This document shows, one piece after another, positions 7,415 through 52,119 of a stretch of DNA of 64,000 bases (positions are counted from its first letter, which is position 1; each line of letters begins with the position of its first letter). This DNA comes from Eledone cirrhosa (lineage: Eukaryota): the NCBI GenBank assembly GCA_964016885.1, contig OZ024751.1, positions 44,640,001 through 44,704,000 of the forward strand. The letters run 5' to 3'. The translations under genes were made by a program, and so were the position numbers. The notes under the pieces are model-generated. The model was not told where the DNA came from. It saw only the letters and a list, made by a program, of their open reading frames with translations, and searched no databases.

Positions 7415-7553
7415 TAACAAAGGAATTGTGGTAAGGAAGCAGATGGACCATAACGCACCAGAGTACTCAATATTTAGGGTAGTAGAGTGGGAAATAGGAA
7501 AAAGTATGACCTCGACGGCAGAGCTCAAGCCGTCGGGGTTATATTTTTTCCTA
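7415..7553 (-). mobile_element. Family A element folding back at the stem III hairpin
   Basis: GGAAAAAGTATGACCTCGACGGC agagctcaa GCCGTCGGGGTTATATTTTTTCC; (TA)n flanks. Confidence 0.75.
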
Positions 7554-10500
7554 TATATATATATATATATATATATATATATATATATATATATGATCTC
7601 ATACATATACATATATCTATATAATCACTTACACACATCAAGTGACAACTAAACATAACGGTGTTCAAGACAACACCAACAGCAGCAGCAATAGTAGTAG
7701 CAGTAGTAGCAGTAGTAGCAGTAGCAGTAGCAGCAGTAGCAGCAGCAGCAGCAATACAAATGTAAGCATTGACTTACTTCCAAGGATAAACTCATTCCCA
7801 TGTGTCTTTTCTTATCTATTTTACTGTTTACAACATCGTGTGATAGTTATCTGCATATATACAGTGTCTGGCTTACTTCTGTGGTTTAGATATTGTAAGA
7901 GAGGTGCGGTGGGAGGGGGGGGGATTGAGGTGAAATGTTAGACTCGAGAACAAAACTGCACCAGACGTTAGTCGATTGCAAATAAACAATAAATAGAGAG
8001 AGGGGGGAGATAGAGAGGGGGAGAGAGAGAGTGTGAGAGAGAGAGAGGAGGGAGAGAGAGAAAAAGAGAGTGTGTGTGAGAGAGAGAGAGAGAGAGAGAG
8101 AGAGAGAGAGAGAGAGGGAGAGAGAATCATTGTATATGAGACAGTGTGAGTGTGAGAGAGAGTGAAGGTAAATGTATGAGTTTATGATGTTGTATAAGAG
8201 CAAAGAACTATTTGTGAAAGTCTTGCTAATGTCCGTTCTCTGTATGTATGTATGGCCTTCCAAAATCACCGGGAGAGATGACCCTTAGCCTTTGTCAAGA
8301 CAGAATTCCAGGAGAAGGAAAACTCTGATATAACACCTGCAACTCTGATGGTATCCAATGATGTTGACTTGTTCTTCTTTTTGGTAAATATCATCTTGGT
8401 TAAGAGAGTGGGACTGGCTTTGTGCAGTGCCTTTACTCACTATAAAAGCTTCACGGCACAGGTATTGCTTTATATCTGGAGATCTCTCTGCACTTGTCGT
8501 CACATGGTACCATGGGCCCAGCACTATGTGTCAATAATTGTCACAAGTGTAATGTTTGTACCAGAGTTTTCAAGTTGCTGGCTGGACTAAAAAGCCACAC
8601 TCGTTCAGCGCATCGGTAGGGGTACTTCTACATGGATATAAAGTAGTGGCCGTACTCGAAAACGAGTTGGCAGCCACCATGTATGTATGTATGTATGTAC
8701 ATATGTCCTTCACTCCCAGTGGTTTAACCACGCGATCGGGTGTCCAGCCCAACTATTACATCCATATGTACATGTGTATATACATATTTACACACTTTTG
8801 GATAGCCGTTGACTCTTATGAGTTCTTCGCCCTTTGTCAGGGCATTCTTCTAGGAGAAGGCAACTCAGGAAATTGGGATAACTCCGATATAAAACCTGCG
8901 GCTCAGTAGTTACCGATGATGTTGATCTTTTCTTCTTTTCGGGTTATAACTACTGTCGTTCAGAGAGTGGGATTTGCTCAGTGCACAGTCGTCTTTCCTC
9001 ACTTTAAAAAGTATCTTCACGCACAGGCATTGCTCGATAGAATTAATTAATAATTATTAATAATGGTATATCGTACAATGGCCATACTCGATAACGAGGG
9101 GGCAGCCATCATGTATCTATGTATGTATATATGTCTGTATGTATGTACGTATGTATGTATGTATGTATGGACATATATATGCATGTATGCACATATATAT
9201 ATGCATATATATACATAGATATATAAAATTATATAATTGCAATAGCAATAACAACAACAATAACAACACCAATAAAAACAGTGGCAATAACAGCAGTAGC
9301 AACAACAATAACCACAGCAACAGAACCAGCTGCAATAACAGCAACAATAACAACGATTACAACAGCCACAAAACAGCAACAATAGCGACAACAGCAACAA
9401 AAACAGCAGCAATAACAGCAACAATAACAACAATAGCAACAGCCACAAAAACAGCAGCAATAGCGACAACACCAACAACAACAATAGCAACAACAACAGC
9501 AGCAGCAAAAAAGCAACAACAATAGATTTAACAACAACAGCATCAACAACAAAAGTGTCAACAGCAACAACATTAACAACAGCAACAAAAACAGCATCGA
9601 AATCAACAGCAGCAACAGCAACAATAACTACAACAACAACAAAAGCAATAACAACAACAGCATCAACAACAAAATTGTCAATAGCACCAACATTAACAAC
9701 AACAGGAATAACAACAGGAACAAAAAATAGCAGCAATAACAACAAGGCATGGTCGTTTGAATTTCAAGTACAACTTGCTTTTGACCATCTTAGCAAATGT
9801 GAAAGTATTTTGCTCAAAAGAAACTGTCTTGATGAAGGACATAAATTCAAACTCGATTGAGAGCCTAATACTCTAACCACTAAGCCCACTGTGTTTATGG
9901 AAAGCACAGCACAAAACGAAAGAGTATATCATAGACTCTGTGTGTGTTCATAATACTGACGGAGAGCAGACATTGTTATTAAAGACTCCAGTATCAAATG
10001 CTTCAACTGCATTATATGTTTATATGTCTGCAGAATATAGACACAGAAACTAGAAAACGACGATGAAAAACTATAAACATAAAAGTAAAGGAATTAAATT
10101 TAAATAAAACCCAATGAAAGCTAGATTAACATATAAATGTTTGTTTATAGATAAGAAGTAAGCGATAAAGAATAAATAAAATATAACCACACTTCCTGTT
10201 GCTCACAAACACTTATTTTACACACAAATATTGGTTGCATAAGAAATCGTCTGCTTTCTTTTTCATCCGTCACATATTTCCGATTCTTTACTCTGTTTCT
10301 CAGCGCCATGTTTACAGATTTGCACACGATTTCTTTATCTTATCAATTATCTTCTCCTCTTTCTCCTCTTTCTCCTCTTTCTCCGTTTTTCTCCGTCTTT
10401 CTCTAACACTTTATAATACATACATACATATATATATATATATATACATACATATATATATATATATATATTTATATATATATATATATATATATATATA

Positions 10501-10616
10501 AGCAAAATACTTTAAACGATGATGATGATGATGATGATGATATATATCAGCATTCTAATAAAAGTGTGTATAGATTTTTTGGGGACACCCTGTGTTTATA
10601 TATATATATATATATA

Positions 10617-11152
10617 TGTGTGTGTGTGTGTGCGTGTGTGTGTGTATGTTTGTCTCTGTGTGTGTGTGTGTGTGTGTATGTCTGTCTGTGTGTGTGTGTG
10701 TGTGTCTCTGCCTGTGTCTGTGTGTGTGTGTGTCTGTGTGTCTGTCTGTGTCTGTGTGTGTGTGTGTGTATGTGTGTGTGTGTGTCTGTCTCTGTGTGTG
10801 TGTGTGTCTGTGTGTCTGTCTGTGTCTGTGTGTGTGTATGTGTGCGTATATGTCTGTGTGTGTGTGTGTGTGTCTGTCTGTGTCTGTGTGTGTGTGTGTC
10901 TGTATGTCTGTCTGTGTGTGTGTGTGTCTGTCTGTCTGTATATGTGTGTGTGTCTGTCTGTGTGTGTGTGTGTGTGTGTGTGTGTCTGTTGGTCTGTCTG
11001 TCTGTCTGTCTGTCTGTCTGTGTGTGTTTGTGTGTGTCTGTCTGTGTCTGTGTGCCTGTGTGTGTGTGTCTGTCTGTATGTCTGTCTGTGTGTGTGTGTG
11101 TGTGTCTGTCTGTCTGCCTGCCTGTCTGTCTGTCTGTGTGTGTGTGTGTGTG
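10617..11152. repeat. (TG)n/(TCTG)n array
   Basis: Direct inspection. Confidence 0.95.
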
Positions 11153-50430: not shown

Positions 50431-50620
50431 AATTGTTTTTACTTTTGGCACAAGGCCACCAATTACTCAGTGCATTACTGGTACTTTATTTTATCGACCC
50501 CGTAAGGATGAAAGGCAAAGTTAACCTCGGCGGGATTTGAACTCAGAATGGCAAGGGCCGTAACTGTATGCTGCAAAGCATGGCGTCCGACCCTCTACCG
50601 ATTCTGCCAATCTACCGCCC
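50431..50620 (-). mobile_element. tRNA-derived SINE family 1, full length with TSD
   Basis: Flanking direct repeat GGGTGGATACATAAT. Confidence 0.9.
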
Positions 50621-51926
50621 TTGGGTGGATACATAATGCTGAAGAATAGCTGACTAGAGTATGGGCCAAACGGAGCCAGCCATTCTTAGTAGTATGAATT
50701 CTTATTAGCGACTTCAGACCTTAGAAAGGAGCCGAAATCGCTGTAATCCTCATTCAACAGCTGACGAAGGGTGTGTCCCTCAGTGCAAGCTGTTATGTCT
50801 TTTTTGTTGTATTGTCGTTGTTTTTTGCTTTTTTTTGTTTTGTTTTTTGTTTTGTTTTTGCGTGACTTACATTTATTGTGGCAATGAACAGAAAGTGGGA
50901 TATTATTGTGTTAAACAAAAATATGTATACATACATTGATGCGTACGTACACACACACTCACACACACATATATATATATAATATATATATACATACATA
51001 TAATGTGTATATATTTAGCCTGGACAATGAATTATTCCTGACTGCTACTGCACAATGGGTCCAAGTTAAATATATATATATATATATATATATATACATA
51101 TAATCTTACACAGTGTGTAAGATTACGTGCTACAGAAGAGCAGGTGACGTAACGTTTCGAAGGGAGGTAAATGTAATTGTATTTATCGCTATTGTTTATA
51201 ATTTGTCATCGTTTGGGAATCAATGAACCAGTCATTATGTAGTTATAAATATGATCTATATATATACAGAAATATATATTCATATATATATATATATAGA
51301 ACTTCAAACAATGAAGACACGACATCGAGTTCTAATATGGTTATAAATCCCGCCCTGACTAAGCAAAACTCTCATGAATGTATATGTGTCTTTATCTGTA
51401 TATATATATATATATATATATATATATATATATACATATCAGTGTGTGAGTGTGTGTGTGTGAGTGTGTAAGTGCGTACCGAATCACAGGCAAACATACA
51501 ATGCAAACAAACGCACCCGAAGTTGATATATGGTTTTTATTTTATGCCGCTACAATAGAATTGACGTATTGGCCTGTAGAAAAGTTGATATATACATTTG
51601 TATAGCGATATAAAAGAGGTTTTGTTGTAGTACAAATTGTAGCTTACGTTATCAAATAAACGAAATCAAATGATACGGTAAGAAAACGGTTTTCTCACCA
51701 CATTCTTCTCAGTTTTGACTCAATTTCTCTTTGTGTTAGTTTCTTATTGTTAGATTTTGTGTGTGTAACACTGCGTGTGAGTGTGTGTTTCTGTGAGCTT
51801 GTGGGTATGTACGTGTGTCTGTGGGTATGTGTGCGTAAGTTTATTGTATCTAGTTGGAGATCCTATTTTGTATATCTATATCTATATCTATGTATATGCA
51901 TATATATATATATATATATATATATA

Positions 51927-52119
51927 TAACGAAGGAAATGTGGTAAGGTACCAGGTGGTACACACCAAAGTACTTACGGTAGTAGAGTGGGTAATAGGAA
52001 CGAGTAGGACCCCGACGGCTGAGCTCAAGCCGTTTCGACGGCTAATTCTGAACTAAAAAGTCCAGAATTAGCCGTCGAAACGGCTTGAGCTCAGCCGTCG
52101 GGGTCCTACTCGTTCCTAT
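51927..52119 (-). mobile_element. Family A element with fold-back
   Basis: Same sequence in reverse orientation; hairpin turn at ~52054-52058; short arm ends GTTCCTAT|(AT)n. Confidence 0.8.

Follow-up and report, generated by a model that had tools for sequence, protein, structure and literature searches.

How do short insertions arise in which two arms of the same sequence face each other head to head, with a tail on one arm only? For Penelope-like retroelements, the origin of such copies and the cutting of hammerhead ribozymes in vivo are both presented as open in PMC8557442 and PMC11167929. We analysed a stretch of 64,000 nucleotides of the Eledone cirrhosa genome (contig OZ024751.1, positions 44,640,001 to 44,704,000), hereafter called the window, which belongs to contig C11 of this TA-rich genome of 3.0 Gb and holds seven short copies of one such family. 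An initial annotation had attributed their shape to complementary DNA (cDNA) that stalls at, or primes itself from, the hairpins of a hammerhead ribozyme. We found that the copies derive from a larger parent element and have two fixed outer ends, that two-armed insertions carry one end of each kind on matching arms, that upstream breakpoints form a sharp cliff, and that long copies read through this cliff. The sequences suggest that the short copies are probably made by twin priming of one RNA at two internal sites, +58 and +138, followed by run-off of both cDNAs at the 5' end of the RNA and by head-to-head joining.

All signed positions count from the A of (TC/TT)AGTC as +1. In this numbering the 3' strand of stem II of the hammerhead occupies +11 to +18, the GAAA +19 to +22, and cleavage is predicted after C+41; the short arm ends at C+58 and the tail at T+138. 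The later tallies were made by hand.

A parent element with two fixed outer ends

Judged by their sequence, the seven copies are fragments of the pseudo-long terminal repeat (pLTR), the 5' front end, of a Hydra-clade Penelope-like retroelement. The parent was reached through a single genomic copy that extends past +138, the additional stretch of which led to loci bearing an open reading frame (ORF); eight of these were fetched whole. The parent unit measures 3,512 nt, with an ATG at +232. Its single ORF, as read from the open stretches of the eight natural copies, encodes a YRDDGL-type reverse transcriptase core followed by a C-terminal IYQ..YIG endonuclease of the GIY-YIG type, and every parent copy seen is interrupted by stops or frameshifts. 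The protein has 18 homologues at E ≤ 1e-20, the two named ones being from cephalopods, and gave no match in searches against Pfam and against the PDB sequences.

Partial tandems forming pLTRs, an inverted 5' copy and an optional tail, here of 80 nt, are all present, as in endonuclease-bearing (EN+) Penelope-like elements. By structure and motifs the parent is classified as such an element, closest to the Hydra clade, which was defined by Craig et al. 2021 (PMC8557442) for C-terminal EN+ elements including Hydra-1_Obim. It shares with the clade, as described there, the DKT (within HSDKTG) instead of DKG, the CxCX5C linker (CNCPDRSIC), the CxxC and CxH around the conserved E and N (CNLC before EE, CKH after NKK), the (TA)n targets, a type I hammerhead near the 3' end, and copies in tandem or inverted arrangement that may carry a tail. 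No CCHH motif was seen by eye in the protein. In contrast to the clade, the element has RWR instead of RWK, a conservative change, a unit of 3.5 kb instead of less than 3 kb, and a tail of 80 nt instead of 30-40 nt. We filed it as a variant of the Hydra clade because of this unit length and because none of its hammerheads (0/57, see below) has a G8. The hammerhead sequence listed for Hydra-1_Obim differs, so the family is distinct from that element.

The family is abundant. Exact matches to the tail followed by TA number 21,280 genome-wide, with none for the control, and 45,485 arms carry the exact +42 to +61 motif. Fifty-nine evenly spaced 10-kb stretches hold 32 insertions, which corresponds to about 160,000 in the genome if the distribution is uniform, older subfamilies included. 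A non-autonomous unit, similar to a retrozyme or to a miniature inverted-repeat transposable element (MITE), that is amplified whole was considered and rejected, as the junctions vary among copies and no complete hammerhead is present in the window.

Within the window, every tail arm terminates at +138 and every short arm at +58, each followed by (TA)n; five copies consist of two head-to-head arms and two are solo tail arms. Elsewhere the same pairing is found: in all fetched loci, 117 of the 118 two-armed inserts shorter than 330 nt combine a +58 end with a +138 end, one combines +138 with +138, and none +58 with +58. Most of these loci were selected on one end, and in the position-sampled set, which was not, the pairing holds in 9/9 cases. 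The 7-nt subfamily tag agrees between the arms in 91/94 inserts, against 31% expected if the arms were independent. The median length of the head-to-head stubs is 190 nt. The short arm ends at TTCC, as initially annotated, but not as a fold-back stop, since full-length sense elements (L066, L067 and L068) end there too. In L067 and L064 the full-length element ends at +58 and the tail is on the short inverted arm. The +58 end is also kept in ten loci in which base +60 is a G, which abolishes homology to TA, as expected from what PMC11167929 describes.

The junctions between the arms were compared in 90 clean cases, omitting 5/95 with gaps of more than 30 nt as well as 22 whose loci had been selected on +42. 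The short arm reached further upstream in 35, the tail arm in 41, and both equally far in 14. When the difference exceeded 10 nt, the short arm was the longer one in 16 junctions and the tail arm in 6. Copy 4 of the window is of the former kind, its short arm containing sequence absent from the long arm. Because the short arm extends upstream of the long arm, fold-back is excluded for this class. The arms overlap by 1-14 nt in 28 junctions, meet bluntly in 17 and are separated by a non-templated insert in 45; stem sequence serves as the microhomology in a minority (the 7415 copy of the window, L232 and L162).

Upstream breakpoints and the hammerhead

The upstream ends of the arms are not uniformly distributed, in keeping with the initial annotation. 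Among the 100 tail ends read first along contig C1, 54 tail arms start between -4 and +9 and 7 beyond -16, the remainder being spread to +112. The aligner used for this sample over-extends by up to 4 nt, and stricter matching was therefore applied to the cliff: of the 186 arms covering +11 to +27, 170 end in the interval from +11 to -7, most often at +1 and +2, and no stop at -8 or -9 occurs among the 16 that pass. This cliff falls in loop II and not on the stems, the bases of which hold few breaks (1 at +18, 3 at +42/43 and 1 at +49 in the 100-copy sample). Among 14 independent ORF-bearing copies that reach the loop II zone, classed by hand, 12 pass it with the whole ribozyme upstream and 2 stop at +1 or +2, and the tandem array of L051 traverses it six times. 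As ORF-bearing copies read through, the stop belongs to the template and not to the sequence.

In L142, L244 and L042, position +1 or +2 is joined to internal sequence of the element (ORF or 3' untranslated region, UTR), as expected if the enzyme jumped templates at an RNA end. At -29 there is a TATA-like box, and at +1 a motif that we take to be initiator-like; the box is present in 3/3 pLTRs of L067, with 0.33 expected by chance per 8 kb. These features suggest a putative transcription start at +1, inside loop II, as the source of the main 5' end of the RNA. No constant upstream exon sequence was seen at the +1 junctions. The base at -1 follows the genomic subfamily, or is most commonly a G when non-genomic (13/65). 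Some of these G could derive from a cap, but most of the 13 may come from the partner arm, and +42 is likewise preceded by an extra G in L291 and L292.

The motif in the window copies is the 3' half of a hammerhead, as initially proposed; the 5' half is absent from them, and the descriptor gave no complete hammerhead anywhere in the window. The 5' half occurs in long copies (2,980 exact matches), and the descriptor recovered 57 complete motifs of type I from the fetched loci, some of which had been selected on the hammerhead motif, against 0 in reversed controls. These 57 contexts show the type I order of core boxes, GAAA and NUH with three helices. The prediction that longer copies would supply the missing half and a stem II complement was thus correct, but not in the core that had been expected: CUGANGA never occurs, and the cores are UUGAGAA (23), UUGAUAA (18), CUGAGAA (15) and UUGACAA (1). 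The core pair 3-8 is U3-A8 in 42 of the motifs and a C3-A8 mismatch in the 15 of the CUGAGAA subfamily. Loop II measures 37-41 nt and helix III 6 bp. U3-A8 is a natural covariant found in Penelope-like elements of Schistosoma, as described in PMC4209133. In the full pLTR, an extension of stem I (GGAA at -55 to -52 with TTCC at +55 to +58) ends exactly at the +58 start site.

A minor class of ends lies at +42, a position that coincides with both the 3' base of stem III and the predicted cleavage site. Breaks at +42 gave 622 pattern matches among the 45,485 arms, against 81 at the control position +39. Among the first 100, 54 were true breaks and 1 a likely decayed form, from which about 340 true breaks are estimated overall, approximately fourfold over the control. 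The first 30 loci held 19 true breaks; in 12 of the 16 two-armed ones both arms end at +41 to +43, and one break shows a jump to ORF sequence. An A-run follows +41 in four copies, each of which has the full ribozyme upstream; three of them resume at +42 and one at +1, whereas the ten upstream control positions (+32 to +40) yielded one match, which is not a jump. Eight independent multi-base, A/T-rich, non-templated inserts were found at +41/+42, one of them in both arms of a short insert. Seven of the eight have the full ribozyme upstream, compared with 16/186 arms generally. These inserts are likely scars of hammerhead cleavage in vivo. Four jumps lead from +1 exactly to +41, two with the full ribozyme upstream and two (L339 and L341) with only +1 to +41. 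Single-base inserts at +41/+42 (53 matches against 18 for the control, the first 30 inspected) were discarded because a decayed five-G variant or short duplications probably explain them.

Window copies and related sequences

The window copies are listed in Table 1. They share a terminus abutting (TA)n in 7/7 cases, as had been noted, with the variant ends CCTTTGT and CCCTCGC in two. Compared with the copy at 43595, the tail arms give BLAST E-values of 1e-35 or better, far beyond chance. The tail arm of copy 5 contains the stem II 3' strand, GAAA, stem III, the GUC site and the stem I 3' strand.

Table 1. Arms of the seven pLTR copies in the window
Copy (span)	Arm and extent	Position	Strand	Remarks
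1 (7417-7551)	Tail arm, +138 to +22	7417-7533	-	TA run 7401-7416
1	Short arm, +35 to +58	7528-7551	+	TA run from 7552
2 (23254-23387)	Solo tail arm, +138 to +5	23254-23387	-	Adjoins (GT)n run
3 (26553-26642)	Inverted short arm, 5 nt, +58 to +54	26553-26557	-	By eye; TA run 26485-26552
3	Tail arm, +50 to +138	26556-26642	+	
4 (27171-27308)	Inverted short arm, +58 to +5	27171-27224	-	
4	Tail arm, +53 to +138	27223-27308	+	2-nt microhomology at junction
5 (43595-43791)	Inverted short arm, +58 to +1	43595-43652	-	Followed by 3-nt non-templated insert
5	Tail arm, +3 to +138	43656-43791	+	
6 (46450-46539)	Solo tail arm, about +49 to +138	46450-46539	+	
7 (51929-52116)	Tail arm, +138 to about -3	51929-52057	-	Two small deletions
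7	Short arm, +1 to +58	52059-52116	+	TA run from 52117

The turning points had been placed on the hammerhead stems. Copies 5 and 7 do turn 16-20 nt before GAAA (at +1 to +3 and at -3 to +1, respectively), but this point falls in loop II, past the stem II strand by 8-10 nt. Copies 2 and 4 both reach +5, upstream of GAAA, but copy 4 does so by its short inverted arm, its tail arm starting only at +53; copies 2 and 6 have no inverted arm. Copy 1 does not turn in loop III, as had been assumed: its two arms are joined via 6 nt of stem III complementarity (7528-7533).

Other near-perfect palindromes of the window (39800-39930, 47880-48060 and 26270-26340) have no similarity to the pLTR of this family. 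Related Penelope-like ORF pieces lie at 55316-56641 and 5522-5815, both on the minus strand, with 51% and 41% identity to the protein of this family, respectively; the latter sits between 458-nt inverted repeats (3712-4169 and 5867-6324).

Several further arrangements were seen among the fetched loci. Two ORF-bearing copies, L034 and L035, start exactly after the tail end (+139), right behind a TA run, as if an earlier pLTR-ORF junction had served as target or break point. Older related pLTR families (the flanks of L158, L247 and L258, among others), with different loop III sequences and +48 to +56 tags, share the TTCC-(TA)n end site and often immediately adjoin copies of this family. An A-to-G change at +60 recurs in tail arms (L001, L003, L011-L014, L019, L021, L025 and L029) and may be either a source variant or a mark of RNA editing. 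Tandem mini-units of about 257-281 nt, in which ORF position +254 or +259 is joined to -21, -22 or about +1, occur in different subfamilies (L051-L053 on contig C3, L031 and L032/L033), L051 consisting of six units inside a two-armed insertion. Rolling copying of a small circular RNA, one end of which recurs near +254, could have produced them.

Origin of the head-to-head copies

In the twin-priming scheme that we consider likely, the endonuclease would cut a (TA)n target and both target ends would prime reverse transcription on one sense RNA, at +138 and at +58. Both cDNAs would run off the 5' end of this RNA, mostly the start near +1 and sometimes the cleaved end at +42, and their ends would be joined via short microhomology or non-templated bases into a head-to-head stub of about 190 nt. 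Hammerhead cleavage would account both for the minor 5' end, at +42, and for a 3' end at +41. Long copies may form when the enzyme crosses from the 5' end to the cleaved 3' end at +41, or when it copies a read-through transcript. The crossing could be a template jump, a homologous transfer or the passage of a ligated circle and, since scars are rare, would usually be precise. The paired arms and fixed ends fit two priming events on one RNA, at two internal start sites such as those found in vitro for PAc, the Poseidon element of Anolis carolinensis (PMC11167929), to which we add the rule of one site per end.

Some observations weigh against parts of this scheme. The sample over-represents young subfamilies and contig C1, and the concordance of the arms could partly reflect later gene conversion. 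The cliff is 10-15 nt wide and not a single base. The TATA/initiator pattern was drawn after the cliff had been seen, the TATA-like box is weak in two subfamilies, and the letters around +1 resemble a 3' splice site too. As to cleavage, 45 of the first 100 matches at +42 were a plain extra G, perhaps due to slippage, and were dropped from the count. Depletion of the C3-A8 subfamily among the +42 breaks was not found: it accounts for 15 of the 54 true breaks against 25/100 arms overall (counted by hand), so that the breaks do not track an intact U3-A8 core, and three of the +41/+42 scars belong to it. Jumps from +1 hit +41 exactly in 4/20 cases and within one base in 7/20 (again by hand), the other 13 landing elsewhere, 4 of them at +36. 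The hammerhead helices are almost invariant in the family, with one G-C to G-U change in stem III and no compensatory changes, and the minimum-energy structure predicted for the full motif is not the hammerhead (-21.2 kcal/mol) but a competing hairpin in which the stem II 3' strand pairs with the stem III 5' strand (-27.9 kcal/mol). Finally, an Rfam scan over the full pLTR and over the window yielded no hammerhead.

According to the initial annotation, the cDNA halts at the hammerhead helices, folds back and copies itself. Such a snap-back would produce arms that are near-perfect mirror images and agree in subfamily, as observed, and it is in line with the few junctions that use stem sequence; a weak hairpin predicted across -4 to +5 and the position of +42 at the base of stem III would suit a stall. 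However, snap-back requires the short arm to lie inside the long arm, which fails in the 35 of 90 junctions noted above, by more than 10 nt in 16, and it does not fit full-length elements whose end is at +58 and whose tail belongs to the short inverted arm. The clustering of breaks in loop II with few at the stem bases, and the passage of the whole fold by 12 of 14 long copies, with six crossings of the loop II hairpin in L051, speak against stalling. We therefore regard stalling or self-priming as unlikely to be the main cause. Just as unlikely, in our view, is a variant that keeps twin priming and run-off but makes the +1 end a processing product, either of a 3' splice site-like signal, ending at +2, or of a nuclease cut in loop II. 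It draws on the pyrimidine run plus YAG that precedes +3 in all subfamilies, on the frequency of G at -1, and on the Penelope 5' UTR intron, which ends at its hammerhead as described in PMC4209133 and PMC2377424. Against it stand the lack of a constant upstream exon at the junctions, the presence of peaks at both +1 and +2, a base -1 that follows the genomic subfamily, and the TATA-like box in all three L067 pLTRs.

Palindromes are unstable in DNA, and long inverted insertions might also have been shortened and homogenised after insertion, by hairpin deletion and gene conversion. The 28 overlapping junctions would suit such a collapse. Yet it predicts neither the fixed +1 edge in solo arms and in the ORF jumps of L142, L244 and L042, nor the non-templated inserts at half of the junctions (45/90), nor A-runs exactly after +41, and we hold it to be very improbable.

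Twin priming as proposed here resembles that of L1, where one RNA is likewise primed from both ends of the target. The parts copied in L1 are separate, do not overlap and start at variable positions, whereas here both cDNAs would begin at fixed sites and cover one stretch twice. In R2, genomic 5' junctions reportedly record a ribozyme-made RNA end, as they may here. The closest parallel is PAc (Frangieh et al. 2024, PMC11167929), which also has two internal initiation sites that bracket the tail and are not homologous to the target, cutting and extension of both target strands, an AT-rich target and a predicted dimer. In the published description of the in vitro work on PAc, no difference in start site was seen between strands and no reads end at the hammerhead site (PMC11167929); in this family, by contrast, one site is used per end (117/118), 80 nt separate the two sites, both of which lie in the 5' UTR, and candidate genomic scars mark the cleavage site. 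Penelope elements of Adineta vaga (Arkhipova et al. 2013, PMC3846280) share the head-to-head inverted pLTRs, the optional tail on one arm and a TATA plus initiator-like motif inside the pLTR. The model given for them invokes self-priming on an antisense template, whereas our data favour two primers on a sense RNA. The ribozyme shares U3-A8, a large helix II that is bulged at its 5' end and a palindromic loop III with the Schistosoma Cercyon hammerheads (Cervera and de la Pena 2014, PMC4209133), which are described as minimal and in need of dimers; here helix III has 6 bp and the long loop II holds the putative start site. The Hydra-clade hammerheads in File S2 of PMC8557442 have CUGANGA cores, a loop 2 of at most 10 nt and a short stem III, in contrast to the UUGANAA or CUGAGAA cores, the 37-41 nt loop II and the 6-bp stem III of this family. 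In the open-access literature, to which subscription papers and the supplements of PMC11167929 may add relevant material, we found no paper on run-off at a pLTR start, on pairing of one site per end or on cleavage scars of Penelope-like elements.

A broader and more tentative idea, less likely than not, is that Penelope-like elements integrate by paired priming, with one complex priming both target ends at two fixed sites of a single sense RNA, and that in this family the promoter lies in loop II. The mRNA would then start with the substrate half of the hammerhead only, and the enzyme half, located in its own 3' pLTR, would cut it in trans. The cut in trans would remove a capped leader of 41 nt and yield a unit-length RNA running from +42 to +41, the possible source of the long copies. 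If this were true, the A-tailed scars at +41 and the jumps of L339 and L341 onto the +1 to +41 fragment would be fossils of a natural split ribozyme.

The class of element itself is already known. With an estimated 10^5 insertions, the family offers predictions at base resolution, with cDNA starts at +58 and +138, one per strand, and RNA ends at +1, +41 and +42. The stubs would explain one frequent origin of the short, perfect palindromes of this genome, and the copies would record the start of the RNA in the animal as well as the predicted cut of its ribozyme.

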